Assembly: GCA_016187125.1 (NCBI GenBank)
Contig: JACPKF010000002.1
Coordinates: 1,469-65,468, forward strand
Length of the DNA stretch: 64,000 nucleotides
Reading direction: 5' to 3'
Source of the DNA: Candidatus Saccharimonadota bacterium
Lineage (GTDB): Bacteria > Patescibacteriota > Saccharimonadia > Saccharimonadales > UBA10212
The notes under the pieces were generated by a model, which was not told the DNA's origin, did not search any database, and saw only the letters and a list, made by a program, of their open reading frames with translations. Below, in pieces: positions 7,182 to 61,116 of the stretch (position 1 is the stretch's first letter; the number at the start of each line of letters is the position of its first letter). Both the position numbers and the translations under genes were made by a program.

Positions 7182-8222
7182 TTAAAAGCCGGGCTTGAAC
7201 CGTTTTAGGTCGGCATCAACCATCAACTTAATTAGTTCGGAAAATGTGGTTTTTGGTTCCCAGCCCAGCTCCTTTTTAGCCAGCGAGTAGTCGCCTTTGA
7301 GTTCTTTGATCTCGGTCGGGCGAAAGAATTTTTTATCCTCGATCGTATAATCTTTCCAATCCAAGCCAACATGGGCAAAAGCCACGGCCAAAGCATCTTT
7401 GACTGAGTAAGAAGTGTTGGTCCCAATAACATAATCTTTTGGGATTTTATTTTGCAGTATCAACCACATGGCCTCGACATATTCTTTAGCATATCCCCAA
7501 TCGCGCTTGGTACTGGTATCACCCATATGCAGCTTGCCGTCAGAGTCAATCAGCGGTTCGCCGGCTTCATTAATCGGCGGATTTTTAACCTTGTTTTTAA
7601 TGCAGGCCACCCCAGCCGTAATCTTGCGGGTTACAAAATGCAAGCTACGCCGCGGACTTTCATGATTAAATAAAATACCGCCGCAGGCAAACATGCCATA
7701 AGACTCGCGGTAACAGCGGGTTATCATATGGGCGTAAGTTTTAGCAATCCCGTAAGGATTATTGGCATCAAGCGGCGTTGATTCGTTGGCGCTGGCGGCC
7801 TTTATATTACCGAAAATTTCTCGGCTGGTGGCTTGATAAACCCGGGCACCCGGCGCAAAATTCCGCACTGCTTCAAAAACTCTCACCGGTCCTAGGGCCG
7901 TAACTTCACCGGTATAAATCGGGTGCGTCCAGCTATCAGCCGGTATTGATTGGGCGGCGATATTATAAACCTCATCCGGCCTTACTGACTTTATAACTTC
8001 ATTTAAGCTGGTCTGATCAATTAAATCGGCCGCTTGTATTTTTATTTTGCCGTAAAGATGAGCTAGATTGGGGTGCTGATAACCAGTTGTGCGGCGAATG
8101 GTACCGGTAACTTCGTAGCCTTTGGCCAGCAGAAGATCTGCCAGATATGACCCATCTTGTGACGAAACTCCAATAATAACTGCTTTTTTAGCCACCATTG
8201 CTCCCTTAGTTACTGCAACCAT
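7182..8222 (-). CDS. gmd: GDP-mannose 4,6-dehydratase
   Basis: Motifs IIGVSSQDGSYLADLLLAKGYEV, NPYGIAKTYAH (YxxxK) and GILFNHESPRRS are hallmark GMD sequences. Confidence 0.9.
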   Translation of the reverse strand: MVAVTKGAMVAKKAVIIGVSSQDGSYLADLLLAKGYEVTGTIRRTTGYQHPNLAHLYGKIKIQAADLIDQTSLNEVIKSVRPDEVYNIAAQSIPADSWTHPIYTGEVTALGPVRVFEAVRNFAPGARVYQATSREIFGNIKAASANESTPLDANNPYGIAKTYAHMITRCYRESYGMFACGGILFNHESPRRSLHFVTRKITAGVACIKNKVKNPPINEAGEPLIDSDGKLHMGDTSTKRDWGYAKEYVEAMWLILQNKIPKDYVIGTNTSYSVKDALAVAFAHVGLDWKDYTIEDKKFFRPTEIKELKGDYSLAKKELGWEPKTTFSELIKLMVDADLKRFKPGF

Positions 8223-8238
8223 TCTACCAAACCTGCTG

Positions 8239-8265
8239 CTGCTGCAAGGCTAGGCCTTGCAGCAG
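8239..8265. repeat. perfect 12-bp-stem hairpin (ctgctgcaaggc-tag-gccttgcagcag) beside the RAYT-like gene
   Basis: Read directly; the two arms are exact reverse complements. It lies in the divergent spacer between gmd and the transposase gene. Confidence 0.8.
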
Positions 8266-8291
8266 TGAGGTGAGTTTAGTACTATTATCAG

Positions 8292-8906
8292 ATGCCCGCT
8301 AAAAATCGAATAAAGATCTATGTGCCAGAGGCTTTTTATCATGTATACAACCGGGGGCTCGACAAACAACTGATCTTTATCGACAATACTGATTATTCTG
8401 TCTTCCTTAGTTTGTTTAAACGATATTTGGCTAATGAAACTGTTAAAGATCCCTCGAGAAGAACCTACGAAAAATTAGCCAACGAAGTAGAACTTCTGGC
8501 CTATTGCCTGATTCCTAACCACTTTCATTTACTTATTTACCAGATTGATTCAATGGGTATGCCAAAACTTGTGCAACGGGTCCTTACTTCATACTCAATG
8601 TATTTCAATAAAAAGTATAAGAGGACTGGACCGTTATTTCAGGATACCTATAGGGCGAGTCAGATCTCTTCGGATGAGTACCTACAACATGTATCACGCT
8701 ATATTCACCTCAACCCTAAAAATTGGCGGCATTGGGACTTTTCAAGTCTAAGATATTATCAGGGCAGTCAAAAAGCCGACTGGATAAATGTAAGCCGTGT
8801 CTTAAGAATTTTTCGTAATAATAAAGAATATTTGGAATTTGTTGCCGATTATGAAGATTATAAAAGATCAATTGATGAAATCAAATACGAATTGGCAGAT
8901 CATTAA
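8292..8906 (+). CDS. IS200/IS605-type Y1 HUH transposase, REP-associated tyrosine transposase (RAYT)-like
   Basis: Motifs YHVYNRG, CLIPNHFHLLI (HUH) and SRYIHLNP (catalytic Tyr region) match the Y1_Tnp/RAYT family. Confidence 0.8.
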   Translation: MPAKNRIKIYVPEAFYHVYNRGLDKQLIFIDNTDYSVFLSLFKRYLANETVKDPSRRTYEKLANEVELLAYCLIPNHFHLLIYQIDSMGMPKLVQRVLTSYSMYFNKKYKRTGPLFQDTYRASQISSDEYLQHVSRYIHLNPKNWRHWDFSSLRYYQGSQKADWINVSRVLRIFRNNKEYLEFVADYEDYKRSIDEIKYELADH

Positions 8907-8958
8907 TTCGCTGCAGTCCATAGCCTAAAAAGCTTATAAAAATAGCTATAATTATGAG

Positions 8959-10009
8959 ATGAAGATTGTGATTGATGCCCGTGAATCTGGCACCAGTACT
9001 GGCCGCTACATAGATAAGCTAGTTGAGTATCTACATAAGCAAAAGCCGGACTTCGACTTTACGGTCCTAACAATGCCAGGGAGAGTTAGTTATTTAAAAT
9101 CGGTGGCACCGGACTTTAAAATTGTGCAGTCTACTTATAAAGAATTTAGTATGGCGGAGCAAACCGGGTTTTTAAAACAGCTAAAGGCCCTTAATGCCGA
9201 TTTGGTACATTTTGGCATGACCCAACAACCGATTTTTTACCAGGGCAAGGTCGTAACCACCATCCACGACTTAACAACCGCCAGATTTACTAATCCGGCC
9301 AAGAACCGGCTGGTCTTTAAAATCAAGCAGATGGTATACAGATGGGTTATAAAGAAAGTTGCGCGTAAATCATATGCGCTTATTACGCCAAGCAATTTTG
9401 TAAAAAGCGATGTCGCACAATATGCAAAAATCGATTTAGACAAAATTGCCGTAATTTACGAGGCCGCCGATAAAATTAATAAGCTTGCTGAGCCGTTACC
9501 TAATTTGGTAGGTAAAAAATTTTTGCTGCATGTTGGCCGGCCTTTGCCGCACAAGAATCTCAATCGCCTAATCGATGCTTTTATTAAACTTAAGGCGACT
9601 CATCCCGATTTACAGCTGGTTTTAGCCGGGAAGTTTGACGATAATTACCAGCTTCTTAAAAACTACGCCGTAAAAAAATCGGCTAAGGACGTTATTTTTA
9701 CTGACTTTGTAAGTGAGGGCCAACTTCGCTGGCTGTATGAACAGGCTACAGCCTATGTTTTTCCATCACTTTCCGAAGGATTTGGCTTGCCAGGGCGATG
9801 CCACATGTTTACCAGAAGTTTATAAAGATGGGGCTCTGTATTTTAACCCGTTAGATGCTGACGATATGGCCACCAAAATCAGCGAAGTCCTGGATAGTCC
9901 GCAGCTATGCCACAGTTTAGTTACGGCTGGTAAAATTCAAGCCGCCAAGTACTCTTGGGACAAAACCGCCTCTCGAACACTCAACGTTTATAAGTCAGTC
10001 TTGAGCTAA
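8959..10009 (+). pseudogene. GT4 glycosyltransferase disrupted by a frameshift or internal deletion
   Basis: ORF 8959..9825 ends just after SLSEGFGLPG. The homologous C-terminus (ATCLPEVYKDGALYFNPLD...YSWDKTA) continues in the +1 frame as ORF 9713..10009. The expected LEAMAxGxPV segment between them is missing. Confidence 0.65.
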
Positions 10010-10880: not shown

Positions 10881-10910
10881 GGGTAATAAATCCCTAGGCT
10901 TTCTTGCTCA

Positions 10911-10991
10911 GAGGTCTATCCTTGGTGAAAAAGAGGTAAAATTTAGTAATTTTTATAAAAAAATACTTTGCTTTCACCAAGGATAGACCTC
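10911..10991. repeat. 81-nt palindromic element P1 (perfect 20-bp arms, 41-nt AT-rich loop with promoter-like hexamers)
   Basis: The arms gaggtctatccttggtgaaa and tttcaccaaggatagacctc are exact reverse complements. It is homologous to the element at 12805..12886 and lies 30 nt upstream of the jag start. Confidence 0.8.
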
Positions 10992-11006
10992 CAACAACAA
11001 GTTGTG

Positions 11007-12122: not shown

Positions 12123-12485
12123 TCACTTTTTTATTCGTTTAGCTAGAACGCCGGCAGCAGACAGTTGTTTTTTTAGCTGGCTAGTTAGAGACTCGACAGG
12201 TTCATCAATAACACTGTCGTGAAAAACCGTTAACACGATATCGTAGGCTTTTAATATATCGTTTTCATTGGTACGCACAACCTCGTAAAGTCTCCGGCGT
12301 ATCCGGTTACGAGCCACCGCCGATTTATTGATCTTACGAGCTACTACTACTGCCAGTCGGTAACTATCCCGCTTGGGATTCTCTAAAACTTTTAGAGAAA
12401 ATGAAGGACCCCGCGTGGTTACACCATGCCTGTAAACATGACGCAAGCTGCCATAGTCATGAAACCGATGCTTCCTTGAAATCAT
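12123..12485 (-). CDS. rnpA: ribonuclease P protein component
   Basis: 120-aa basic protein located downstream of rpmH. Confidence 0.8.
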   Translation of the reverse strand: MISRKHRFHDYGSLRHVYRHGVTTRGPSFSLKVLENPKRDSYRLAVVVARKINKSAVARNRIRRRLYEVVRTNENDILKAYDIVLTVFHDSVIDEPVESLTSQLKKQLSAAGVLAKRIKK

Positions 12486-12780: not shown

Positions 12781-12804
12781 GATCATACCTTAACATAGTT
12801 CTCT

Positions 12805-12886
12805 GAGGTCTGTCCTTGTAAAAAAGTTAAGTAAAATCTAGTGATTTTTACTAAAAAATACATTGTTTTTTACAAGGACAGACCTC
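12805..12886. repeat. 82-nt palindromic element P2 (perfect 21-bp arms, 40-nt loop), paralog of P1
   Basis: The arms gaggtctgtccttgtaaaaaa and ttttttacaaggacagacctc are exact reverse complements. It lies 25 nt upstream of the rpmH start, in the rpmH/dnaA divergent spacer. Confidence 0.8.
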
Positions 12887-12935
12887 CCAACCGGTACGTA
12901 GAATTCACAATAGTAAACCACAAATGAGAGGGAGT

Positions 12936-13134
12936 TTTCCACTTTTATCTAACTTTTGTCCACGTTTTTACAGATGAGCGGGCCGGCTGTGTACAACTTT
13001 TCCCTTCTGGGCGTTGGCTGGCTGGGTAGTATAGTAGTTTAGGCATAAGCTGTGGAAAAGCTCGCAATGATCAGCTATATTAAGAACTGCATTGTAAACA
13101 ACCAGGAAGAGTTGAAAGAGGGTTTTAGTCCACA
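12936..13134. other. candidate oriC part 1: DnaA-box cluster upstream of dnaA
   Basis: Boxes close to TTWTNCACA are TTTTCCACT (12936), TTGTACACA (rc of 12988..12996), a perfect TTTTCCACA (rc of 13051..13059) and TAGTCCACA (13126..13134). Confidence 0.55.
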
Positions 13135-14519
13135 TGCAGGAAAATACACTGTGGCAGGCTGTGCTAGGCGAGATTGAGCTTAGTGTTAGTAGAGGCAACT
13201 ATGTAACGTGGTTCAAAAATACCCAACTTATTCGCTATAAAGATGATGTTGCTGTGGTAGGTGTGCCAAACATTTTTGTTAAAAATCAGCTAGAGCGTAA
13301 ATTTAATGACTTAGTAGTTAATATACTTGCCAAAAATGGTATCCAGCCCTCAAGAGTCGAATACAAAATTCACTCCGGCATTGCGCCAACCACCAAACAC
13401 AACGACGAGGGTATTCTGAAAAACCCAGGCGCTATAACAGGTTTATCAGAGGTAAGCACAGGCCCTAAGTTGAGAATAGCTAATGTTACTCACTCTTACC
13501 GCCAAGGTTTAAACGACCGTTATAGTTTCGAGAATTTTGTTGTTGGCGCTGGTAATGAACTGGCCTACGCTGCTTGCCAAGCAATTGCCGGCAGCCCCGG
13601 TACTCGGTACAACCCTCTGTTCATATATGGAGGTGTAGGGATCGGTAAAACTCATTTAATTCAAGCTGTCGGCAGCGCTATTTTGGCAGCCAAACCAAAC
13701 GCTCGCATTATTTACGCTTCAACAGAACAATTTGTCCAAGAATTTGTGGATGCTCTGCGCTTTAAAAAAAATACTACTGATTTTGCTGGATTTTACCGCG
13801 GCGCCGACGTCTTAATTGTTGATGATGTACAGTTTTTGGCAGGCAAAGAAAGAGTTCAGGAAGAATTTTTTCATACTTTCAATGCTCTTTATCAAGCCAA
13901 CAAGCAAATTATTCTAACCAGCGACAAACCACCCAAGGAGATCCCAACCCTAGAGGAACGACTTAGATCGCGCTTTGCCTGGGGTATGTCTATAGATATG
14001 CAAACTCCGGATTTTGAAACCCGTTGCGCCATCCTGCAAAGTAAAGCTGCGATTCAAAACATAAATTTATCCCAGGCCGTAACTGAGCTTTTGGCAACCC
14101 ATATCCACAGTAATATTCGTGAACTAGAGGGAGCTCTAAACCAACTGTTGGCTTACTGCGAAATGAGAGGTGTCGAGCCAGATATTCAGGTTGCAACCGC
14201 CATGTTTGAGAATGTAAAAAACCGGCCAAAACACATTAACGCTCGCCAAATTATTGAAAGAACTGCTAAACATTTTCATGTTTCTATGGAGGATATTTTA
14301 GGACCAAAGCGAGATAAAGATATAGTAGTCCCCCGTCAAATTGCCATGTATATGCTCAGGTGTGAGTTGCATTTGTCTTTTCCCAAAATTGCTCACGAGC
14401 TTGGCCGCAAAGACCACACCACCGCCATTCACTCTATTAATAAGATCGAGAAGGAAACCGGTTTAGACGGCCCCATCAAGCAATATGTCAGTGAGTTGAA
14501 GGAGAAATTATATGTTTAA
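13134..14519 (+). CDS. dnaA: chromosomal replication initiator protein DnaA
   Basis: Walker A GGVGIGKTHL, then VDDVQFL, and a C-terminal DNA-binding helix region (HTTAIHSINKIE). Confidence 0.95.
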   Translation: MQENTLWQAVLGEIELSVSRGNYVTWFKNTQLIRYKDDVAVVGVPNIFVKNQLERKFNDLVVNILAKNGIQPSRVEYKIHSGIAPTTKHNDEGILKNPGAITGLSEVSTGPKLRIANVTHSYRQGLNDRYSFENFVVGAGNELAYAACQAIAGSPGTRYNPLFIYGGVGIGKTHLIQAVGSAILAAKPNARIIYASTEQFVQEFVDALRFKKNTTDFAGFYRGADVLIVDDVQFLAGKERVQEEFFHTFNALYQANKQIILTSDKPPKEIPTLEERLRSRFAWGMSIDMQTPDFETRCAILQSKAAIQNINLSQAVTELLATHIHSNIRELEGALNQLLAYCEMRGVEPDIQVATAMFENVKNRPKHINARQIIERTAKHFHVSMEDILGPKRDKDIVVPRQIAMYMLRCELHLSFPKIAHELGRKDHTTAIHSINKIEKETGLDGPIKQYVSELKEKLYV

Positions 14520-25713: not shown

Positions 25714-25852
25714 TCGGCCTCCGGCCTTCCATTAACCATTAACCATTTACTATTTACCACACATTTACCATTTGCCATTAACCACTGACCATGGATAACT
25801 GTAAAAGTAGAGAGTATGGTGAAAGGTGAAAAGTGAAGGGTAAACGGGTTTG

Positions 25853-26815: not shown

Positions 26816-27031
26816 CCCAGGCCTCCTTCGGAGGCAATTATCAATTTACAATTTACAATTTTCATTAAATTTACATTTAACAGTCTCCAAACATAGCTTA
26901 GGGCTTGAAGTTGAGTGCAAGAATTTTTTTTGGGCTGTGGACTGTTAGCTGTGGACTGTGGACTCATTTTTCTCCCACCCTCTTTGGTTATGCGGCTTGC
27001 CCGCCTAAAATCTCTAAGAAATTTTGATGGG

Positions 27032-27949: not shown

Positions 27950-28092
27950 AAAAATAGCTCGTAGCTGCTAGCTCGTAGCCGTTAGCTTAATCCTTTTTAG
28001 CCTTTATCATTTTTCTTGCTATTAGCTATCTGCTAATCGCTAACCCTCAGTATCTAACAGATTAACGCTTATGGCAATAATTACTGGCAAGG

Positions 28093-28353
28093 TTATTTTC
28101 TATAAACTTCTCTGCGATGATCAACGGCCAATACGCTAATTTTTTTATTCCCGGCATCAAAGAGTATCCGGTAATTACCAACTCGCCACCTGTATTGCCC
28201 GCTGCGCTTATCGGTAAGCTTCGCAGCGTAACTTAGCGGGTTTGGTTGCGCTAGGAAAAACTTAATTTTCTCACCAATCCTGCTACGGACTACCGGGTTA
28301 AGTTTCTCTAAGTCTTTTCTAGCTGTTTCTTTGAATTCAATCTGCCAGTTCAC
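28093..28353 (-). CDS. type II toxin, RelE/ParE family
   Basis: 86 aa ending YRWRVGNYRILFDAGNKKISVLAVDHRREVY. It overlaps the upstream antitoxin gene by 4 nt. Confidence 0.8.
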   Translation of the reverse strand: MNWQIEFKETARKDLEKLNPVVRSRIGEKIKFFLAQPNPLSYAAKLTDKRSGQYRWRVGNYRILFDAGNKKISVLAVDHRREVYRK

Positions 28354-28628
28354 AGACCGTCGCCAAATACTTCTTCAAAACTGTATGTCTTAGTCTCGCG
28401 ACGGGCCCTGGCTATCTTTTTTATAAAACGGGGGTTCTGGCTGGTCAGAAAATCTTCTAATATGTCAGTATCCACTAAGGCAATATCTGGTTTCCCGCGG
28501 CGCTTAACAATCAGTACGTCGCCTGAAGACACATTGTTGAGTGCCTCGGCCATATTCTCGCGGAGTTTCGCGGAAGTTATTACTGTTGTAGTCATATCTT
28601 CTCCTTTTTGTACATCAATAGTGTACAT
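28350..28628 (-). CDS. type II antitoxin, Phd/YefM family
   Basis: Sequence TTTVITSAKLRENMAEALNNVSSGDVLIVKRRGKPDIALVD. The likely start is the internal Met (MTTTV). Confidence 0.75.
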   Translation of the reverse strand: MYTIDVQKGEDMTTTVITSAKLRENMAEALNNVSSGDVLIVKRRGKPDIALVDTDILEDFLTSQNPRFIKKIARARRETKTYSFEEVFGDGL

Positions 28629-28862
28629 TATATCAGAAGGTCAGTCAACGATTTTTCGGCTAAAAGCTGTTAGCTAACAGCTCATAGCTATTTTCTGCAG
28701 GGTTCTGCAGGGATTGTCCCTGCAAACGGGGGAAATATTGTATAGTATATAGTCTTCGGGTTATTACCTTATTGTTTCCAGGGTGGTACCCTGTAAATGG
28801 GTCTCGGATTTCCAAGATTTCCAAGGACGGTTCTTGGAAAAATGATGGAGTAAATGGATCTC

Positions 28863-29198
28863 TTAAACTAGGCCTAACAGCTGTGCCAGCCTGCGCCTGA
28901 CTTCGGCCATTATTTTGGTGCTGACTTTGCCAACTGAGCGATCAATAATAAACGCCTCAACGGTGTAAATTTTATCTGGTCTAATGTAGCTATTAATCCG
29001 TAGGCCGCCTTCAATAAAATCTGTGTTGCGCAGTGTGATAGCACTTTGAGAAGCCAAGTCTTTGCTGGTTATTTGGCAAATGATATAGTTGTCAAAATCA
29101 GCCAGGCCAATTATTAAGGCCGGTCTTTTTTTGTATTTTAGGTAGTTGGAGTATGGAAACTCAACCGCTACGACATCGCCTACTGCAAGTACGCCCAT
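28863..29198 (-). CDS. type II toxin, MazF/PemK family
   Basis: Motifs GDVVAVEFPYS...KKRPALIIG...ICQITSK are typical PemK/MazF sequences. Confidence 0.75.
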   Translation of the reverse strand: MGVLAVGDVVAVEFPYSNYLKYKKRPALIIGLADFDNYIICQITSKDLASQSAITLRNTDFIEGGLRINSYIRPDKIYTVEAFIIDRSVGKVSTKIMAEVRRRLAQLLGLV

Positions 29199-29437
29199 GC
29201 CGCATCTTCTTCAGGTGTATCCCAGTCTTTAGCTAAGGCTGAGTAGCCAGGCCCGTAAGCCTTGATCATAGCCATTTTTTTAGCCTTGCTGGCAGGTCTT
29301 TTTTTTGCAGGCTCGATAAAAATCTTGCCATTTTTTAGCTTAAGCTCTAGCTCGGTACCCAGGCCAGCTTCTTCAATCAAGACTTTTGGTATGCGCACAC
29401 CTCGGGAGTTGCCAATTTTTATCAGACTTGCTTTCAT
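29180..29437 (-). CDS. type II antitoxin, AbrB/MazE/SpoVT family
   Basis: LIKIGNSRGVRIPKVLIEEAGL forms a looped-hinge-helix motif. It overlaps the MazF-like gene. Confidence 0.75.
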   Translation of the reverse strand: MKASLIKIGNSRGVRIPKVLIEEAGLGTELELKLKNGKIFIEPAKKRPASKAKKMAMIKAYGPGYSALAKDWDTPEEDAAWAYLQ

Positions 29438-29480
29438 AATTACATTGTATGTACATAGCCGATAGCTGTCAAGTGTTCTT

Positions 29481-29524
29481 TCAAGGACGGTTCTTGAAGA
29501 TCTTCTTTCAAGAACCGTCCTTGG
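29481..29524. repeat. hairpin made of two inverted copies of CAAGGACGGTTCTTG; a third copy lies at 28821..28837
   Basis: Read directly: tcaaggacggttcttga ... tcaagaaccgtccttgg. Together with the copy at 28821..28837 it brackets the MazEF cassette. Confidence 0.75.
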
Positions 29525-29557
29525 AAGTTTGGTAAATTTCTAATGCTTAATTATGGA

Positions 29558-34704: not shown

Positions 34705-34740
34705 CATAACAAAATCCAGCGATCGCTGGATTTTGTTATG
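34705..34740. promoter_or_regulatory. perfect 36-bp palindrome in the divergent T4SS/pilin control region
   Basis: cataacaaaatccagcgatcgctggattttgttatg is its own exact reverse complement. It lies between two genes that diverge from it, so it is not a terminator. Confidence 0.6.
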
Positions 34741-42507: not shown

Positions 42508-42695
42508 CGACCCGTTCGACAAGCTCAGGGTCGTCCTGAGTGAAATCGAATGGACGACGAGCACCCGTAGCTCCCGCCTACGCCACCCCCTTCGTTATCT
42601 CCTTCGCTGAAGCTACGAAGATCAAGGAAGCTTCCTCCTTCGCAAATGCTTCGGAGAACAAATCGGAGGTCAAGAAGGCTTCGGCGGGCAGGCAG
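42508..42695. repeat. composite of two dispersed repeat families in the tRNA-Arg leader
   Basis: 42508..42562 resembles 7125..7181 and 49957..50013. 42581..42695 is ~90% identical over shared blocks to 55939..56029 inside murE. Confidence 0.7.
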
Positions 42696-42719: not shown

Positions 42720-42794
42720 GTCCCCATAGTTTAATGGATAGAACACTGGCTTGCGGAGCCGGCGATAGAGGTTCGAATCCTCTTGGGGGCACCA
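42720..42794 (+). tRNA. tRNA-Arg with genomically encoded GCG anticodon, CCA encoded
   Basis: Hand-folded: acceptor GTCCCCA/TGGGGGC, anticodon stem CTGGC/GCCGG, loop TTGCGGA, T-arm AGAGG-TTCGAAT-CCTCT. Confidence 0.7.
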
Positions 42795-43756: not shown

Positions 43757-44020
43757 AAATACTCTTCTTTATTTATATCATTAAAAATTATTTATCAAGC
43801 TCTAGTTTAGCATCATTCTAAAAAAAAGTCAATCAGCTATCCCTGAACCTCAAAACCTCCGTCAAAGTCCATCGCCCAAGGTACAACTCATCCGTTGTTT
43901 ACAAGTTGTTTACAAGGAGCCTCCTTGTAAACGGCAAAAATATTGTCTAATAAATTATGTTTTGAGATTCAGGTAGCTATGGCTTAAATAAGAACTCTGA
44001 ATTGGTATTATAGAAAATGC

Positions 44021-45232
44021 ATGTTAAAAAGCGCTCACAATTTGGTTAAAAGTGTTGGTAAAAAGCTGAAGCTTGACGATGCGACCGTAGAAAAGCTTCT
44101 GAAGGCGGACGCGGAGCACCAGTTTGAAATTAGTTTGAAAAGTGGGAAGCAGTTTAAGGCTTACCGTGTCCAGCATAGCAATAAACTAGGCCCCTATAAA
44201 GGCGGAATCAGATTCCATCCTCGGGTGAATCTGGATGAAATAAGAACTCTGGCAACTTTAATGAGTCTTAAAACTGCCGCTGTGGGGCTGCCGCTTGGTG
44301 GCAGCAAAGGCGGCGTGACGGTGGATCCAAAGGTACTTACTCAAGACGAACTCGAGGAACTAAGTCGTAAGTATGTACAGCACCTGCAATCTCATATAGG
44401 ACCGGCTAAAGACGTCCCTGCTCCTGATGTAAATACCAATGCCCAAATCATGGATTGGATGATTGACGAATACCAAAATCTGACTGGCAACCTGAGCCAG
44501 GCTAGTTTTACCGGTAAAAGTCTGACTAGTGGCGGCAGTGAAGGCCGTGATGAAGCCACCGGCCGCGGCGGCGTAATTGCCCTGCGCGAACTCCTTATGC
44601 TACAAGGATTATCCTTGCAGCATAAGGGGGATCAGGTATTGCGTTTTGCCGTTCAGGGATTTGGCAATGTGGGTTCGAATTTTGCAATCGTCGCTGAGCA
44701 GGAGCAGCCCAACTGGAAGTTAATTGCCGCCAGTGATTCTGGTGCCACTATTTTTGACTCAGAAGGACTTAGTGCCTCTAGTCTGGCGGCCTTTAAAAAA
44801 CAAGCTGGCCGCTTTAGCCAGTACAAAAATGCTCAAGTCCTAAACAGTGACGCAATATTGTTCCTGGAAGTTGATGTTTTGGTCCTAGCGGCCCTGGAGG
44901 ATGCCATAACAAATAAGAACATGCAGCAGGTTAAGGCCCGACTTATCGTTGAGCTAGCCAATGGGCCGATTAACGAAACCGCCTATGGTTACTTGGCCAA
45001 AAAAGGCATAACTGTTTTACCGGACATTATCACCAATGCCGGAGGCGTTATTGTAAGTTATTTGGAGTGGCTACAAAATAAGGCTGATGAGCGTTGGACG
45101 CGCGCCAAAGTTAACACCGAGCTAGAACAGTACATGATTAAAGCCATAAGCGAGGTTTATAAAACTTCTAGTTCACAAAATCTGACACTCAAAGAAGCGG
45201 CAATTATGCTAGCTCTCAAACGCCTGACTTAA
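44021..45232 (+). CDS. gdh: Glu/Leu/Phe/Val dehydrogenase family (glutamate dehydrogenase-like)
   Basis: Catalytic region KGGIRFHP...LPLGGSKGG and the Rossmann motif AVQGFGNVG. Confidence 0.85.
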   Translation: MLKSAHNLVKSVGKKLKLDDATVEKLLKADAEHQFEISLKSGKQFKAYRVQHSNKLGPYKGGIRFHPRVNLDEIRTLATLMSLKTAAVGLPLGGSKGGVTVDPKVLTQDELEELSRKYVQHLQSHIGPAKDVPAPDVNTNAQIMDWMIDEYQNLTGNLSQASFTGKSLTSGGSEGRDEATGRGGVIALRELLMLQGLSLQHKGDQVLRFAVQGFGNVGSNFAIVAEQEQPNWKLIAASDSGATIFDSEGLSASSLAAFKKQAGRFSQYKNAQVLNSDAILFLEVDVLVLAALEDAITNKNMQQVKARLIVELANGPINETAYGYLAKKGITVLPDIITNAGGVIVSYLEWLQNKADERWTRAKVNTELEQYMIKAISEVYKTSSSQNLTLKEAAIMLALKRLT

Positions 45233-45393
45233 ACAATGTTCGATGTCTCATAGAATAAGGCGAGACCAAAAGCAATGCAGTATTGCTATTTATTTGCTAC
45301 AAGGATAATCCTTGTAGCAAATCTTGTAGCAAATAAATAGTCTCTAGACTACTGACGGAGAGTGCTTTTACAGTTAATAAATTTAGTAGTCTG

Positions 45394-47943: not shown

Positions 47944-48058
47944 TGATTCGTTCCACTCACCATCAGCTAAAAGTCCTTAGCTCAGAGTCCTTAGCCACCT
48001 CATTTAGGTTAATAGCTAACAGCTCTCAGCTTTCAGCTACAGCGACGGAAGGAGCTGC

Positions 48059-49408: not shown

Positions 49409-52251
49409 ATATTTTTGACAGCTGTTTGGAAAGCCGCGATTTCGTGTTTGATAGCTTCTAAAAGTTGCTGCTCTTCGACTAATTGAGTTTTTGTTTGTTT
49501 GACTAATTCCTTCGGCGCTTTTTGAGTGTAAGATTTGTTAGATAGGCGCTTTTGCAGCAGCTTTATGGCGGCTTCTCGCGCCTTTTGGGAGGTTTTTAGC
49601 CGGCCTAAGTAGGCTTGAGCGGTTTCCCGGTCAATGTCCAGCCAAGCGGCGTATTTAGTGCCGGTTAGTCGTAAGCCCTTAGCTGCTTTAGCTTCTTTTA
49701 CCTGGCTTAAGCGTCCTAAACTTTTGACTAATTCTTTATTTTCATCAATCAGCGGCGCGGCTTTATAAAACAGCGCCGGTTTAGTAACACCAACATTGGC
49801 GGCTATTTGCCTGGACTGGGTAATAATTTCTTGGAGCTCTTTGAATTGGCTAACCTTAGCTAGATCAACTTTCTGAAATTTTGGCCAAAGCTGCGAGGCC
49901 AGCAAACTCTCCTTTTCCAAGGCCAGGCCTTGGAAAAGGTTTTTATCCTGAGCAGAGTCGCCCATTCGACCTTGCTCAGGGCGGTCCTGCCCATTCGACG
50001 AGTTCAGGGCAGCCTTAGTGTTAATCGAAGGCTGAGTTTTGTCGAACGGATCGAAGGATTGCCAGATGGTTTCGGTAACAAATGGAGCAAATGGGTGGGC
50101 TATTTTTAGAGTTGATTTAAGCACGAAGGCCAGCACTTCTCTGTTGGGCGTTGTTTTGCTGACTTCTACGTACCAGTCGGCAAAATCATCCCAAACAAAA
50201 TGGTACAGCGCGTCATAAGCTTCGCTGAAACGGAAATTATCCAAGTCCTCAGAAACAGCCCTCGCCGCAATACTTAACTTGTTAAGTATCCAATGATCGG
50301 CAACCGATTTTGGCATAACACTACCCCTGTTATGACCTAAGGGTACGACCCTTAGACTTCTTCTACCTATGTTGTTCTCCTCGCCCTCTAAGGGTCGTAC
50401 CCTTAGGTCGTCTATGTAGCGGGCGATGTTCCAGAGCTTGTTAACAAAATTACGGTTGGCTACGATCTTTGACTTTCTTACTCGCTGGTCAGTTCCTGGA
50501 GAAGTGCCGGCTATCAAAGCCAAGCGCAGAGCGTCAGTGCCGTATTCATTTATAACTCCAACTGGATCAACGATGCTGTCTGGATCACTTTTGCTCATTT
50601 TCTTGCCGGTTTCTGTCCGCACTAGGCCATGCAGATAAACGGTTTTAAATGGTACTCGGCCAGTAACATAAGTAGTGGCTAGAATCATTCGGGCAACCCA
50701 GAAAAAGAGAATTTCATAAGCTGTTTCTAAGACATCAGTCGGGTGGTAAGTTTGATAGTCAATACTTTTGGCTAAAAGATCATCCAGCGATAGCGAAAAG
50801 TCCTTTGTCAGTTCTGGATCGACTAAGGTGCTCCAGGTCCAAAGCGCCGAGGAAAACCAGGTATCCAGCGTGTCCGGATCTTGCTGCCAGCCCTCTTCCT
50901 GCGGCGGCCTAACGCCTACATAAACACTGTCTTTGCTGTGGACCGCGGACTGTGGACTGTGGACTGATTCCTGTCTGTACCACACCGGAATCTGATGTCC
51001 CCACCAGATTTGACGGCTGATGCACCAGTCCCGCAGATTATCAATCCAGTGGTAGTAAATTTTCTCGAACCGTTTAGGCACAATCTTAATATCGCCATCT
51101 TCAATAACAGCTCTCATGACTTCCTTGAGGCTGCGTTTTTGACCCTTCCAATCTACCGCCGGCCGGTTGACATCAATAAACCATTGCAGTTTGATTTGTG
51201 GTTCAATAACACCTTTGCCGCGGCTATTTAAAGCGATGTTATGGGTGTATGTCTTGTCAATGCTGACCAATAAATTTTTCTGACGCAATTTTTCCACAAT
51301 TTTAGGCCGGGCTTCATCTATTTTTATAGCTTCGAATTCGCCGGCGATAGCTAAAAGCTTTCCATCAAAATCAATAATTTGTTCTTTTTCCAGACCGTGC
51401 CGCTCGGCGATTTCAAAGTCAGTGCGGTCGTGCCACGGCGTGATGGTCATCACCCCTGTTCCAAAGGCTGGGTCCACGGCCTCGTCTTTAATAATGGTGG
51501 CGGTAACTGGGCCATTGATCCATTCACATTCAAAAGTGTCGCCGGTTTTATATTGAGCGTAGCGTTTGTCACCGGGATGCATAACGACGTATTTGTCGCC
51601 AAACTTGGTTTCGGGACGGGCCGTGCTTATCTTAAAAGGGCCGTACTGTAAGGTGTAAAGTGGCGACTCCTCTTCTTTGTAAATAACTTCATCGTCAGAA
51701 ACCGTAGTTTCCAGATTGGGGTCCCAATTAACTATCCGATGGCCCCTGTAAATTAGCCCGTCTTGGTACATTTTTATAAAGACTTCGTTAACGCAACGGT
51801 TAAGTGCCTCGTCTAAGGTGTATCGCAGCCGGCTCCAATCGGCGCTGGCGCCCATAGCCCGCATTTGCTTAAGCATTGTACCTCTGTTACGATCGGCAAA
51901 CTCCTTGACCTTGGCAACAAAGGCTTCGCGGCCCAGTTCGTGTTTATTGGTCCCCTGCTCTGCCAGTTGTCGCTCAACTACAGAATTTGTAGCAATCGCT
52001 GCGTGGTCGGTTCCCGGTAACCAGAGAGCGTCGTAACCCACCTGGCGCGCATGCCTGATTAGAATGTCTTGAAGCGTTATGAATAATGCCCCGCCAAGGT
52101 GGAGGGTGGATGTTTCATTGGGGGGTGGCATGGCTATAGAGAAATGAGGTTTGGAGCTACTCGGATCAGCTATAAAGACGCCGCTCTTCTCCCAAAGGGC
52201 ATAAATATCGGCTTCATAATCACCTGCAACATAGGCTTTAGGTAATCCCAT
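49405..52251 (-). CDS. valS: valine--tRNA ligase carrying several repeat-derived in-frame insertions
   Basis: PPPNETSTLHLGGA (HIGH region with an HLGG variant), LWLPGTDHAAIAT, KMSKS (GKKMSKSD) and a C-terminal coiled coil; 948 aa. Confidence 0.9.
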   Translation of the reverse strand: MGLPKAYVAGDYEADIYALWEKSGVFIADPSSSKPHFSIAMPPPNETSTLHLGGALFITLQDILIRHARQVGYDALWLPGTDHAAIATNSVVERQLAEQGTNKHELGREAFVAKVKEFADRNRGTMLKQMRAMGASADWSRLRYTLDEALNRCVNEVFIKMYQDGLIYRGHRIVNWDPNLETTVSDDEVIYKEEESPLYTLQYGPFKISTARPETKFGDKYVVMHPGDKRYAQYKTGDTFECEWINGPVTATIIKDEAVDPAFGTGVMTITPWHDRTDFEIAERHGLEKEQIIDFDGKLLAIAGEFEAIKIDEARPKIVEKLRQKNLLVSIDKTYTHNIALNSRGKGVIEPQIKLQWFIDVNRPAVDWKGQKRSLKEVMRAVIEDGDIKIVPKRFEKIYYHWIDNLRDWCISRQIWWGHQIPVWYRQESVHSPQSAVHSKDSVYVGVRPPQEEGWQQDPDTLDTWFSSALWTWSTLVDPELTKDFSLSLDDLLAKSIDYQTYHPTDVLETAYEILFFWVARMILATTYVTGRVPFKTVYLHGLVRTETGKKMSKSDPDSIVDPVGVINEYGTDALRLALIAGTSPGTDQRVRKSKIVANRNFVNKLWNIARYIDDLRVRPLEGEENNIGRRSLRVVPLGHNRGSVMPKSVADHWILNKLSIAARAVSEDLDNFRFSEAYDALYHFVWDDFADWYVEVSKTTPNREVLAFVLKSTLKIAHPFAPFVTETIWQSFDPFDKTQPSINTKAALNSSNGQDRPEQGRMGDSAQDKNLFQGLALEKESLLASQLWPKFQKVDLAKVSQFKELQEIITQSRQIAANVGVTKPALFYKAAPLIDENKELVKSLGRLSQVKEAKAAKGLRLTGTKYAAWLDIDRETAQAYLGRLKTSQKAREAAIKLLQKRLSNKSYTQKAPKELVKQTKTQLVEEQQLLEAIKHEIAAFQTAVKNI
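50336..50407. mobile_element. 72-bp MITE-like element with perfect 20-bp terminal inverted repeats, inserted in frame in valS
   Basis: cctaagggtacgacccttag ... ctaagggtcgtacccttagg are exact reverse complements. 72 nt is 24 codons, which encode LRVRPLEGEENNIGRRSLRVVPLG in a variable part of ValRS. Confidence 0.65.
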
Positions 52252-53691: not shown

Positions 53692-54891
53692 CTACATAGA
53701 TAGACCTGGATTAACCTCGAGGGAGTACGGATCGGCGGGTTTTTGTTTTATAGCGGCTTTAAAGTAGCCTAAACTGGCTACCATGGCGGCGTTGTCGGTG
53801 CAAAGTTTGATATCAGGGAAAAAGACCGGAGTCTTGGCGAATTTTTTGGCCACTGTTTGGCGCAAAAGCTGATTGGCGGCAACACCGCCGGCGATAACGA
53901 TAGAATTTGGCTGGAATTCTTTCTCAGCTTTCTTTAATGACTCAACCAGTGTTTCAATAGCAATATACTGAAAACTGGCGGCTATATCGGCTTTCTGGGT
54001 CTCATTTAAGGCTTCAGGCAGCTTAGTAGAAGGAAAGGTGTAATCATGACCACTTTGTTCTTGAGCTACTCTTAAAACCGCTGTTTTTAGGCCGGAGAAA
54101 CTAAAAGGATAAGCATTAGTGTGATAGGTTGAACCTATCACATTGTCGAATTTGGCTTTGGGGAACTTAAAAGCGTGAGGATTACCTTTGGTAGCAACTC
54201 TAGCGACGGATTGGCCACCGGGGTAGGGCAGGCCGAGCATTTTGGCTACTTTATCAAAAGCTTCGCCTACGGCATCATCTGTGGTTTGGCCTAAAACTTG
54301 GTAATTCATATGGCTTTTCATCAACACCAGCTGGGTGTGGCCACCGCTCACAATAAGCGCCAGAATAGGAAATTCTGGCTGCTTATTGTTCAAGCTAATA
54401 GCTGTTAGCTGAGAGCTGTTAGCTTTTTCGGTGAGGAAGGCGGCGTAAATGTGGGCCTGGACGTGATCAACAGCATACACGGGTTTGTTTTTGGCAATAG
54501 CTAGAGTCCGGGCCGTTAAAACGCCAATCAGTAAACTGCCAAGCAACCCTGGGCCCTGAGTAACGGCGATAGCATCAATCTGCGACCAAAGGTCGTCAGA
54601 TTGAGGAATTAGCAATTGGGAATTAGCAATTAGCTTTGATTTTTTACTATTTTCTAATTTCTGATTTCTATTTTCTCCGAAAGCATCCCGTAGGGCTTTG
54701 TCTATCACCGGGATGATGCTTTCTATGTGGCTGCGGGCGGCGATTTCTGGCACCACTCCTCCGAAGGCGGCGTGCAGATCTACCGAGCTGGCCACCACAT
54801 TGCTGAGCAGTTTAAGCCTCCGCCGGCCGGCGGATTCAACTACTGCCGCGGCCGTCTCGTCACAACTGGTTTCTATTCCTAAAACCTTCAT
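53692..54891 (-). CDS. tsaD: tRNA N6-adenosine threonylcarbamoyltransferase TsaD with two low-complexity insertions
   Basis: MKVLGIETSCDETAAAVV, VSGGHTQL and GLPYPGG. At 399 aa it is ~60 aa longer than usual. Confidence 0.9.
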   Translation of the reverse strand: MKVLGIETSCDETAAAVVESAGRRRLKLLSNVVASSVDLHAAFGGVVPEIAARSHIESIIPVIDKALRDAFGENRNQKLENSKKSKLIANSQLLIPQSDDLWSQIDAIAVTQGPGLLGSLLIGVLTARTLAIAKNKPVYAVDHVQAHIYAAFLTEKANSSQLTAISLNNKQPEFPILALIVSGGHTQLVLMKSHMNYQVLGQTTDDAVGEAFDKVAKMLGLPYPGGQSVARVATKGNPHAFKFPKAKFDNVIGSTYHTNAYPFSFSGLKTAVLRVAQEQSGHDYTFPSTKLPEALNETQKADIAASFQYIAIETLVESLKKAEKEFQPNSIVIAGGVAANQLLRQTVAKKFAKTPVFFPDIKLCTDNAAMVASLGYFKAAIKQKPADPYSLEVNPGLSM

Positions 54892-54995: not shown

Positions 54996-56396
54996 TTGGT
55001 TAACGGGATGAATCCGAAAAAGCTGGCTCGCAAGGTCTTGCCGCGGCGCGGCGTGCGCCTGGCCGAGGAGACCTATCGGAAGGGCAGGGTATATAGCCTC
55101 CAAGCTCTCAACCTATTTCCGGCCAGAGGCCTGCGGGTAATAGGCGTAACCGGAACAAATGGCAAGACTACAACCTGTAATTTTATAAACGAAATGCTGA
55201 AAAACGCCGGCTATAAAACGGCTCTGTACAGCACAGCCATCATAGAAATTGATAGCCAAAAGCGACTTAATGAATCTCACCGGACGGTGCCGTTGACCGC
55301 TGAGCTGATAGGGTTTTTCAAAGATGCCGCTAAAGCCAAGGTGGATTTTGTGGTTATGGAAGTCACCAGTATGGCTCTTGACCAGCATAAAATGATCGGT
55401 ATTCCGGTGGAAGTGGCGGTTATGACAAATCTTAGTCAAGAACACCTTGATTACCACGGGACTATGGAAAATTACGCGGCGGCCAAAGCCCGGTTATTTA
55501 ACAAATATATGCATCCCAAATATGCAGTGCTAAACCGTGACGAGCAGTGGTATGAGTATTTTGCCGGGCAAGCCTCCGGCGAAGTTATTTCTTATGGCAA
55601 AGACCAGGCCAGCTCCGTCAGGATTGTTAATATAAGCCCTACAACTAACGGCAGCGATTTCAGTCTGGAAATTGATGGAAAAAATCTGGATGCTCATAGC
55701 CAATTAGTTGGCGAATTTAATGTTTATAACGCCGCGGCGGCAGCTGCCGCGGGCTTGGCGATTGGCCTAGATAACCAACAAATCACCAGCGGTATTGCAA
55801 CTCTAAAAGGGGTGCCTGGGCGCATGGAAAAAATTGAAGCCGGGCAAGACTTTGAAGTGATTATAGACTACGCTGTTACACCCGACGCTCTAGCCAAAGC
55901 CCTGCAAGCTACAGCTCAAACCACAAAGGGCCCTCCATCGCCACCTCCTTCGCTGAAGCTACGAAGATCAAGAAAGCTTCCTCCTTCGCAAGTGCTTCGG
56001 AGGACAAGAAGGCTAGGGAGGGCAGGCAGGGTAATAGTTGTTTTTGGCGCGACGGGAGACCGTGATAAGTCTAAGCGGCCGCTTATGGGTGAAGTGGCTG
56101 CCAAATATGCTGATCGGATTTTTTTAACTGATGACGAAACCTATAGCGAAGATCCGGCCGCTATCCGCCGGGCCGTCTATGAGGGCATTTTGGCAGCTGG
56201 TGGCGCCACAAAAACCACCGAAATTGGCGATCGCCGCCGGGCGATTAAAGCCGCTTTTAATGACGCCAAACCAGGCGACACCGTGCTGCTAACTGGTATA
56301 GGCCATCAAACGACTCGCAATATGGGCGGGCACGAGGAGCCCTGGAATGAGCACGAAGTTGCCAAAGAGCTATTGAGCCAATTAACTAAAACCTAA
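54996..56396 (+). CDS. murE: UDP-N-acetylmuramoyl-L-alanyl-D-glutamate ligase (MurE) with a repeat-derived insertion
   Basis: GVTGTNGKTTT, DYAVTPDAL and VFGATGDRDKSKRP. The amino-acid substrate (DAP or Lys) cannot be told by eye. Confidence 0.85.
   Translation: MVNGMNPKKLARKVLPRRGVRLAEETYRKGRVYSLQALNLFPARGLRVIGVTGTNGKTTTCNFINEMLKNAGYKTALYSTAIIEIDSQKRLNESHRTVPLTAELIGFFKDAAKAKVDFVVMEVTSMALDQHKMIGIPVEVAVMTNLSQEHLDYHGTMENYAAAKARLFNKYMHPKYAVLNRDEQWYEYFAGQASGEVISYGKDQASSVRIVNISPTTNGSDFSLEIDGKNLDAHSQLVGEFNVYNAAAAAAAGLAIGLDNQQITSGIATLKGVPGRMEKIEAGQDFEVIIDYAVTPDALAKALQATAQTTKGPPSPPPSLKLRRSRKLPPSQVLRRTRRLGRAGRVIVVFGATGDRDKSKRPLMGEVAAKYADRIFLTDDETYSEDPAAIRRAVYEGILAAGGATKTTEIGDRRRAIKAAFNDAKPGDTVLLTGIGHQTTRNMGGHEEPWNEHEVAKELLSQLTKT
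55939..56029. repeat. dispersed repeat copy inside the murE coding sequence (paralog of 42581..42695)
   Basis: Shared blocks are ctccttcgctgaagctacgaagatcaag[a/g]aagcttcctccttcgcaa[g/a]tgcttcggag and caagaaggct...ggcaggcag. In murE it is translated as a basic/Pro-rich segment (PPSLKLRRSRKLPPSQVLRRTRRLGRAG). Confidence 0.75.
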
Positions 56397-57923: not shown

Positions 57924-58047
57924 TTGTGAGAAATATTCTTGACGAGAAGTTGGCACTCGGGTATTATGAGTGCTAATAATAGCTAATAGCCCATAGCTCT
58001 TAGCCGATAGCTAACCGCTAATCGCTATAAGCTACCAGCTGGAGAGA

Positions 58048-60100: not shown

Positions 60101-60403
60101 GAAACTTTTGCCACCTTTACCGCAAAGCTGGCGCCAAACTCTCGGACATTCGTAAACGAGACGGTTACCCAAGTCTCTAAATAAGTGAGCCTCGGCAACT
60201 CTTCGCCTTTGGCGAATCAAACACTCCTCGGCTCGGCTTATTTCTCAACTTTCACTCCCTCTGTTTTCTCGAGTCCGAACTATAAGCTCAAAGCTGCAGC
60301 AAAAAAGGAAGCGAGTTGAATACTGATTCAATTATGGTATAATTGGTTAAGTTTATTCGCCCTAAATTTCGCCGAAATTTAGGGCGGACGAAGGAGGAGT
60401 TTT

Positions 60404-60913: not shown

Positions 60914-61116
60914 CACGCACATACCCATTTACCGATTTTTCATTTAACAAATTAATTATCAATTTTCATTTGCCAAACTTTTAAAAAATGGTCAATGGTA
61001 AATAATTAGTAAATTGTTAAATGGTAAATTTGCAACCTTCGCCCGGCCGTCGTAGCCAGGGCTACTATGGCGGAGTCGGCTAGCCGTATTACGGCTAAGT
61101 AGGCTAAAATTAAATC

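Follow-up and report, generated by a model that had tools for sequence, protein, structure and literature searches.

The DNA stretch analysed here, referred to as the window throughout, comprises 64,000 nucleotides of a Candidatus Saccharimonadota genome (assembly GCA_016187125.1, contig JACPKF010000002.1, positions 1,469 to 65,468) and contains a gene for a Y1/HUH transposase-like enzyme (hereafter the Y1 gene) that is preceded by a perfect DNA hairpin. Repetitive extragenic palindromes (REP) and the REP-associated tyrosine transposases (RAYT) provide the classic example of a domesticated transposase that keeps a population of non-autonomous hairpin repeats; what is known of these systems comes almost entirely from Proteobacteria and, to some extent, from Cyanobacteria and Bacteroidetes. 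It is likely that this bacterium, a member of the Candidate Phyla Radiation (CPR), possesses a system of the REP/RAYT type, which consists of a domesticated, vertically inherited TnpAY1 enzyme of class 2 and a cognate hairpin whose conserved core lies near the apex. According to the best-supported reading of the sequences, the enzyme and the small hairpin seem to behave as one unit, and the hairpin appears to have spread to intergenic DNA and, in frame, to genes. The hairpin type is tightly tied to both flanks of the Y1 genes, an association that spans the phylum, and the Y1 gene and the hairpin arms co-diverge.

The Y1 gene (8292..8906, forward strand) encodes a protein of 204 amino acids. 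An earlier note on this DNA had recognised a Y1 transposase gene from an HUH motif (NHFH) and a tyrosine region (RYIHLNP), which was confirmed by Pfam (Y1_Tnp, PF01797; E 6.6e-11, 42.8 bits with a cut-off of 23), by the motifs and by the predicted fold. NHFH occupies residues 76-79 (H77, H79) and is followed by FQ at 116-117, YIHLNP at 137-142 (Y137, N141-P142) and SS at 151-152. In an alignment of 36 homologues, H77, H79, Y137 and N141 are invariant and P142 is nearly so. Thus, the protein carries the HUH metal motif and the single catalytic tyrosine of the HUH/Y1 superfamily, and the tyrosine motif Y137-I-H-L-N141-P142 is the Y---NP form of RAYT/TnpAREP (TnpAY1 class 2) as opposed to the Y---Q form of IS200 (PMC6006769). 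The AlphaFold model, for which the 36 homologues were used, is confident (pLDDT 90.3); it shows the RRM-like alpha/beta fold of IS608/ISDra2 TnpA and TnpAREP and ends at residue 204 with a short helical tail. A Foldseek comparison with the PDB returned Y1 transposases as all of the 26 best matches, headed by E. coli TnpAREP with a REP hairpin (4er8_A; E 1e-5, TM score normalised to the target 0.66) and followed by ISDra2 TnpA and IS608 TnpA. The link to solved structures is one of fold only because the PDB sequence searches gave no significant match, neither with the single protein (no match) nor with the family profile (a marginal match to the HUH region of ISDra2, E 0.23). Moreover, a Pfam scan (E <= 0.1) detected no Bac_DnaA_C, HTH_23 or HTH_28, i.e. 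no distal C-terminal helix-turn-helix (HTH)-like domain.

The identical protein is on record from an NCBI assembly named 'Candidatus Saccharibacteria bacterium'. The family comprises more than 6,000 relatives of about 204 amino acids, which form at least 1,154 clusters at 50% identity (E <= 1e-30), and the named relatives are mostly labelled Saccharibacteria, Parcubacteria or Patescibacteria. One IMG record of the family has already been given the automatic COG name 'REP element-mobilizing transposase RayT', and therefore the gene label itself is not new. In the literature, no paper was found that links RAYT, REPIN or TnpAREP with CPR, Patescibacteria or Saccharibacteria.

The perfect hairpin 5' of the Y1 gene that the earlier note had described is indeed present at 8239..8265. 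It reads CTGCTGCAAGGC-tag-GCCTTGCAGCAG, or CTGCTGCAAGG-CTAGG-CCTTGCAGCAG when written around its central five nucleotides, forms a perfect 12-bp stem and lies 27 nt upstream of the Y1 gene in the 93-nt spacer that separates it from the divergently oriented gmd gene. Folded as single-stranded DNA (ssDNA), the hairpin reaches -17.3 kcal/mol (z = -4.95). A scan of positions 8100-9050 revealed no terminators and no terminator-like T-runs, and the promoter scan gave no match at the hairpin. Resemblances to -35 and -10 elements that had been read by hand were too weak and were not used.

The gene and its surroundings were compared across 80 loci that encode Y1 relatives in species-representative genomes. 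By label, these belong to Saccharibacteria, Woese-, Levy-, Beckwith-, Gottesman- and Nomurabacteria, and some are metagenome-assembled genomes (MAGs) labelled as Gammaproteobacteria or otherwise. Compared with the loci as a whole, the sequence within 200 nt of the Y1 gene contains perfect hairpins at a 12-fold higher density. Under a strict definition (RGG-N5-CCY with at least 8 of 10 pairs), the density is 2.5/kb beside the gene (within 200 nt), 0.32/kb within the gene and 0.026/kb in the remainder of the loci, random sequence giving 0.0012/kb; RGG-N5-CCY palindromes are concentrated about 100-fold in the 200 nt around the Y1 gene relative to the rest of the 80 loci. At 42 of the loci, a canonical hairpin lies upstream of the Y1 gene, and at 47, one lies downstream; 33 loci have one on both sides and 56 on at least one, the median positions being -40 relative to the start codon and +35 relative to the stop codon. 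The link between gene and hairpin that the earlier note had proposed is borne out by these loci. In most loci, the longest sequence common to both flanks is the hairpin itself, and the 85 distinct flank hairpins yield the consensus TTnCARGG-TCnGA-CCYTGnAA with an invariant GG-N5-CC. Tight inverted doublets stand beside the Y1 gene in five loci (L001, L009, L025, L053 and L061). Furthermore, the identity of the Y1 proteins correlates with that of the hairpin arms (Spearman 0.23), a value that was reached in none of 1,000 permutations.

A covariance model, R1, was built from the foreign flank hairpins only, with no window sequence, and run unfiltered over the window. It matched nine distinct sites at E <= 0.02, among them the gene-adjacent hairpin (8238-8266, E 0.005), and four sites more weakly. 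Since the model was built without window sequence, the retrieval of the window hairpins is independent evidence that they form one class with the gene-flanking hairpins of CPR genomes. The same hairpin type is present at 12 other places in the window besides the gene-adjacent one. The counts of simple patterns agree: CAAGG-N5-CCTTG occurs five times (8245, 43913, 44603, 45300 and 49918) and always with a gap of exactly 5, compared to an expectation of about 0.06 per gap, ARGG-N5-CCYT cores with at least three extra pairs occur eight times (0.085 expected) and strict RGG-N5-CCY sites also eight times (0.23 expected). A loose pattern that allows one mismatch is only modestly enriched (18 vs 7.2). 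Three elements, the gene-adjacent one included, have the 25-nt palindrome TGCTRCAAGG-N5-CCTTGYAGCA in common (family D5). Most recurrences that the earlier note had listed, i.e. those at 28821-28837, 29481-29524, 43908, 44593 and 45293, belong to this class, but those at 10911-10991 and 12805-12886 are real repeats of a separate family of 85 nt (see below). Additional sites were found at 49918, 28708, 28779, 50334-50409 (a doublet) and 54120-54142. Rfam at gathering thresholds recognised four tRNAs only in the window, and no known RNA family at any hairpin.

Further copies bracket two genes. The three-arm element at 28693..28729 consists of two copies of TTCTGCAGGG, ATTGT and CCCTGCAAAC (R1 match at 28701, E 0.02), and in the relative L001, the 15-mer that forms its core, CAGGGATTGTCCCTG, is also found flanking the Y1 gene. 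It is followed by a hairpin with the core CAGGG-TGGTA-CCCTG at 28772..28800 (R1 match at 28772, E 8.5e-4) and by a second three-arm element at 28807..28843, in which GATTTCCAA is repeated 2.1 times and the core CAAGG-ACGGT-TCTTG contains one G.T mismatch (R1 match at 28815, E 0.011). Three copies of the CAAGGACGGTTCTTG subfamily, with one G.T mismatch, lie within 700 nt, and two of them make up a REPIN-like inverted doublet at 29478..29527 with 21-nt arms and 8 nt in between (-21.2 kcal/mol, z = -8.4; weak R1 matches at 29475 and 29502). The second group is located at GDH. The three-arm element 5' of GDH (43894..43934) contains GTTGTTTACAA 2.1 times and the core CAAGG-AGCCT-CCTTG (R1 match at 43906, E 7e-5), and in the one 3' of GDH (45286..45340), the right arm CTTGTAGCAAAT of a hairpin with the core CAAGG-ATAAT-CCTTG is duplicated (R1 match at 45293, E 5e-3; z = -9.5). 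GDH is thus bracketed by mirror-image three-arm elements. Likewise, a gene for a MazF/PemK-like toxin (28863..29198, reverse strand) has hairpin clusters on both sides (region 28350-29557); an open reading frame (ORF) for a Phd/YefM-like antitoxin (28350..28628) is 235 nt away from the MazF-like gene and not adjacent to it.

The three-arm layout noticed earlier could be confirmed as a perfect tandem duplication of one arm at four elements, i.e. at 28693-28712 (period 10), 28807-28825 (period 9), 43894-43916 (period 11) and 45311-45334 (period 12). In other genomes, such a duplication was found at 4 of 149 hairpin sites compared to 3 of 1,600 control positions. Arm duplication is therefore a property of the hairpin family that is unusually frequent in the window. 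Homology over about 80 nt, with co-variation of all three arms, links the units at 28677-28760 and 43880-43960. The arms of these two units contain TTGCAA-like hexamers, and an AT-rich, promoter-like stretch, AAACGGnnnAAATATTGTnTAnTAnA, stands 3' of both (28730-28760 and 43933-43962). Similar copies tend to cluster: 44596 goes with 45293, 28822 with 29482 and 29509, and variants are likewise found together in L066.

Four hairpin sites are located inside conserved genes, of which one encodes GDH, another the valyl-tRNA synthetase ValRS (two sites) and a third a TsaD-like protein. The GDH hairpin (44593..44627; 17-nt arms with one mismatch, R1 match at 44596, E 0.14) encodes LLMLQGLSLQHKG and coincides with a five-residue insertion, LSLQH, that is shared by only 1 of the 39 other closest homologues. 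The relative with this insertion, L081, keeps the orthologous palindrome with compensatory changes (TGCTACAGGGTC-T-GACCCTTGAGCA vs TGCTACAAGGAT-T-ATCCTTGCAGCA). Within ValRS, a hairpin with a 14-bp stem (49911..49939; R1 match at 49911, E 8e-5) encodes NLFQGLALEKE and ends a 43-residue insertion that is absent from all 34 homologues. An inverted doublet in the same gene (50334..50409; units AAGGG-TACGA-CCCTT, perfect 23-nt arms, z = -10.1, R1 matches at 50383 with E 0.013 and at 50332 with E 0.18) corresponds to an insertion of about 20 residues that is shared with the closest homologue only and is absent from 33 of 34; the ValRS gene of L081 has a different doublet at the corresponding place. 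The tsaD-like gene (53692..54891, reverse strand) contains TGTGATAGGTT-G-AACCTATCACA at 54120..54142 (R1 match at 54117, E 2.7e-3), which encodes VIGSTYH. All three single in-gene hairpins are read in one frame, xxR-GGN-NNN-NCC-YTx, giving Gly ... Ser/Ala/Thr. Hairpins are also found inside the Y1 gene itself in 14 of the 80 loci, mostly in MAGs of the Microgenomates type, and the frame is intact. According to the homologue alignments, the copies in GDH and ValRS are lineage-restricted in-frame insertions, which fits an insertion of hairpin sequences. The suggestion of the earlier note that hairpins mobilised by a RAYT lie behind the repeats within genes is supported: the GDH and ValRS insertions fit it and mobilisation is suggested by analogy, but arrays with a period of 7, which also occur in genes, are left unexplained.

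Tandem arrays with a period of 7 or 14 and units such as CCATTTA, TGGACTG, TAGCTNN or TAATAGC are found at 25729-25792, 26842-26879, 26931-26964, 27955-27987, 28659-28690, 48020-48038, 50936-50966, 54399-54424, 54600-54676, 57977-58027, 60986-61029 and 61211-61243. They are mostly intergenic, and some are located in genes; CTGTGGA, repeated 4.4 times in ValRS, encodes SVHSPQSAVHS. The 85-nt inverted-repeat element is present in two copies, one in the jag/yidC spacer (10909..10993) and one between the ORFs 12123..12485 (reverse strand) and 13134..14519 (forward strand) at 12804..12888. The copies are 85% identical, with compensatory changes in arms of about 20 bp and an AT-rich centre of 40 nt, and the arms read ...TCCTTG...CAAGGA..., the opposite order to that of the hairpin family. 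R1 did not match either copy, Rfam gave no match, and no copies were detected in 83 other related loci. Since only a 3-bp mini-stem fits and neither R1 nor the 83 loci gave a match, the possibility that the elements are doublets of the hairpin family was rejected, and they are treated as a separate family. A direct repeat of 76 nt (42586-42661 and 55932-56007; 89% identical) is rich in CTTCG/CGAAG self-complementary words, and its first copy is located just 5' of a tRNA-Arg gene (42720-42794). Two long perfect intergenic palindromes have no RGG-N5-CCY core: CATAACAAAATCCAGCGA/TCGCTGGATTTTGTTATG at 34705-34740, which has no loop, and CGCCCTAAATTTCG-C-CGAAATTTAGGGCG at 60358-60386.

Around the Y1 gene, Pfam identified the upstream neighbour as a GDP-mannose dehydratase gene (gmd; 7182..8222, reverse strand) and the downstream neighbour as a glycosyltransferase gene, and hence neither is a tnpB. 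The glycosyltransferase gene (8959-10009) is apparently split by a frameshift into 8959..9825 and the overlapping ORF 9713..10009, which bears the usual C-terminal segment of GT1 enzymes; the split points to a pseudogene or an assembly error. Across the 80 loci, there is essentially no synteny of neighbours. Only L001 shares the neighbourhood, with the glycosyltransferase gene upstream of the Y1 gene instead of downstream as in the window.

The lack of conserved neighbours and the switched side of the glycosyltransferase gene, together with the hairpins at fixed distances on both sides, would be expected if the gene and its two flank hairpins formed an autonomous IS200-like element, of which the dispersed hairpins are solo ends or derivatives resembling miniature inverted-repeat transposable elements (MITEs). 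A further observation in favour of this explanation comes from the relative P0003, which was found in the same three metagenome samples as the relative of GDH. Its Y1 gene is flanked by TTTGCAAGG-ACAAT-CCTTGCAAAG upstream and by an inverted three-arm version downstream, and the whole unit stands between perfect 34-nt direct repeats, AGTATATAAAAACAGGGGCGCTCTGGCAATACGC (L084, 707-740 and 1495-1528), which may represent a target duplication or a site of the attachment type. The L084 contigs with the Y1 gene are only 1.1-1.5 kb long in four independent assemblies. However, there is a single Y1 gene in the 64 kb of the window. The three copies in a Woesebacteria genome are only 57-65% identical to each other, and a sister genome contains orthologues of two of them (91% and 75% identical), whereas the intragenomic copies of IS200 are on average 99% identical (PMC6006769, Table 1). 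Moreover, the divergence of the Y1 protein from its nearest relative (69% identity) tracks that of the housekeeping protein GDH (70%). The old paralogues and the GDH-like divergence indicate that the gene behaves like a domesticated RAYT and not like an insertion sequence. The tyrosine motif is also of the wrong kind, tnpB is missing from the two neighbouring positions, and the flank hairpins are the same palindrome in either orientation and not distinct left and right ends. The arrangement is rather that of a REPtron, i.e. a gene flanked by palindromes that are also dispersed, with the hairpin on the upstream side only in the window and on both sides in 33 of the 80 loci. We therefore regard an IS200-like element as quite unlikely.

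The fixed median positions of the flank hairpins could instead reflect a regulatory or structural role in cis, with the hairpins acting as operators for dimeric binders of double-stranded DNA, as transcript-stabilising stem-loops or as attenuators, and with the Y1 enzyme not acting on them. Perfect dyads, often with a 'loop' of one nucleotide, would suit the recognition of a duplex, the arms resemble TTGCAA-like -35 elements when read by eye, and GDH and the MazF-like gene are bracketed as well. Against this stand the scan of 8100-9050, in which T-tract terminators and a promoter match at the hairpin were not found, and the in-frame copies in ValRS, GDH, tsaD and, in 14 loci, the Y1 gene. Furthermore, a role in cis leaves the 100-fold concentration of hairpins at the Y1 gene across CPR classes and the co-divergence of arms and protein unexplained, and the structure closest to the Y1 model is that of an enzyme caught binding such a hairpin. 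Regulation without the enzyme is thus unlikely. It is extremely improbable that the dispersed hairpins are chance palindromes or ordinary terminators with a coincidental resemblance. The outer arms do differ between copies and the loose pattern is only 2 to 3 times as frequent as expected, but the counts of exact-gap cores, extended cores and strict sites in the window refute this explanation, as do the matches of the independent R1 model and the absence of terminator-like T-runs from the scanned region.

Several observations weigh against assigning the window to the REP/RAYT type. The protein does not reach the equivalog level of REP_Tyr_transpos (NCBIfam NF047646; 43 bits vs a cut-off of 80). 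The canonical 5' GT[AG]G tag is absent: no GTAG or GTGG is present at the foot of any hairpin element in the window, and the 85 flank hairpins have no GTAG and no conservation outside the stem. The window gene has no downstream hairpin, as judged by R1, folding and the flank comparison, and its 3' spacer does not fold. Unlike a fixed pair of transposon ends, the central 5-mers of the two flanks are identical in 17 loci and reverse-complementary in 14. The outer arms are diverse: a second copy of the exact 10-nt arm lies within 20 kb at no more than 11 of 56 loci, which led to the rejection of identical high-copy REPs and to the preference for a shared core with diverse arms. Given these diverse arms and the low dispersed density, amplification must be far weaker than that of classical REP/REPIN sequences. 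Because the flank hairpins were chosen for palindromy, their pairing statistics are circular and were not used as evidence of structure; the independent evidence consists of the sequence conservation and the window matches. The closest genome found shares only about 70% amino acid identity. Finally, the arrays with a period of 7 or 14 represent a repeat-in-gene phenomenon of their own, for which the hairpin system offers no explanation.

In spite of these points, a REP/RAYT-type system remains the reading that we prefer. Since both the GTAG tag and the NCBIfam score are missed and the motifs are those of a subclass described as lacking REPs, the system has to be considered a variant and not a canonical member. 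By analogy to TnpAREP and IS608 TnpA, the Y1 protein would bind the hairpin when it is extruded on ssDNA, for instance at the replication fork; Tyr137 would cleave and rejoin the strand, and His77 and His79, probably together with Asn141, would hold the metal. The enzyme may thereby seed, copy or move hairpins in the form of single copies, inverted doublets or elements with a tandem duplication of one arm, and the three-arm duplication could have been left behind as a footprint when the enzyme cleaved and rejoined the strand at CAAG|G. Through its flanking copies, the gene would be recognisable as a REPtron-like unit, and its expression may be influenced by them as well. We tentatively propose that the CPR-widespread Y1/HUH enzyme and the hairpin with the apex core CARGG-N5-CCYTG constitute an undescribed branch of REP/RAYT systems. 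This branch would be the first in Patescibacteria and the first link of a subclass-2.1-like enzyme to hairpins, with recognition centred on the apex, in-frame colonisation of essential genes (ValRS, GDH, tsaD and its own gene) and persistence by compensatory evolution.

The genomes of CPR/Patescibacteria are roughly 1 Mb in size and among the most streamlined bacterial genomes. If the same logic of enzyme and hairpin is at work in such small genomes, one has to ask which benefit maintains it. When compared with GDH, which was the only comparison made, the Y1 family evolves as slowly as a metabolic enzyme. A core at the apex in place of a GTAG foot would offer a second recognition design for asking how Y1 enzymes read hairpins, and a subclass thought to be REP-less would now be linked to hairpins. 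Hairpin insertions would also account for part of the lineage-specific insertions that conserved proteins show here. In practical terms, the hairpins may break assemblies and can pass for terminators or for peculiarities of coding sequences.

Among the known systems, the palindromic elements of Rickettsia resemble the window hairpins in that they are inserted in frame into conserved genes. These elements are about 100-150 bp long, and a dedicated transposase is not known for them. The TnpA proteins of the IS200/IS605 family (IS608, ISDra2) have in common with the window protein the HUH/Y1 fold and probably the recognition of small subterminal hairpins on ssDNA, and they are its second-best structural matches. 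However, they are Y...Q proteins of about 150 amino acids, compared to Y...NP and 204 amino acids here, and they belong to near-identical multi-copy elements with distinct left and right ends and often with tnpB, none of which was seen in the window or at its two Y1 neighbours. TnpAY1 subclass 2.4 of Cyanobacteria and Bacteroidetes is similar with respect to in-frame hairpins in unrelated conserved genes and in the transposase gene itself, the latter having been reported as unique to this subclass. In contrast to the hairpins described here, its REPs are long and GT[AG]G-tagged or 'double-foot', and its motifs are WQ and YIxNNP.

By its motifs, the window protein fits TnpAY1 subclass 2.1 (Quentin et al. 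2018, PMC6006769), which corresponds to the Group 1 RAYTs of Bertels and to the TIRYT/TIRtron of Di Nocera (PMC3733652). The signature of this subclass consists of NH[YF]H, FQ, Y[IV]HLNP and SS in the proximal tail (PMC6006769, Table 1), and all four motifs are found in the window protein (NHFH, FQ, YIHLNP and W-x-FSS), the assignment being made by motifs alone. The low copy number is a further likeness. Subclass 2.1 members have a median length of 238 amino acids and a distal HTH-like domain, subgroup 2.1.2 being heterogeneous in the HTH, and they have been reported to lack an association with REP-like hairpins; CPR taxa are not mentioned (PMC6006769). The window protein is shorter, shows no HTH match and is flanked by a hairpin. 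On either side of TIRYT genes, repeats are found at fixed distances, and some of these repeats are self-complementary, of moderate abundance and organised as dimers (PMC3733652). The fixed distances recur here, and the flanks are self-complementary hairpins, inverted in 14 loci and direct in 17. The GGGGWSAS motif of the terminal inverted repeats (TIRs) of this group agrees with ARGGTCnG at 5-6 of 8 positions, a loose resemblance that may serve as a lead only.

The REP/RAYT systems and REPtrons of Proteobacteria, such as YafM/TnpAREP of E. coli (4ER8) and the REPIN-RAYT system of Pseudomonas, differ from the system described here in the 5' GT[AG]G tag, which the window and CPR hairpins lack. 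Here, CARGG...CCYTG is conserved inside the stem by the apex around a fixed 5-nt centre, the stems are short with diverse outer parts, and the copy number is modest, at about 0.1-0.2/kb in the window and 0.03/kb in most relatives. The protein falls short of the cut-off of the NCBIfam RAYT model, its sequence does not match 4ER8 significantly, and the host is a CPR/Patescibacteria genome. The likenesses concern the organisation as a whole. In both cases, a single-copy, vertically inherited Y1/HUH gene with Y...NP is flanked by copies of short palindromes that occur scattered through the genome as well, and intragenomic paralogues each have their own hairpin variant. Singlets occur together with inverted doublets of REPIN-like architecture, which were seen within 64 kb at 29478-29527 and 50334-50409 and beside the gene in five relatives. 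Moreover, it is E. coli TnpAREP to which the model of the window protein bears the closest structural resemblance.

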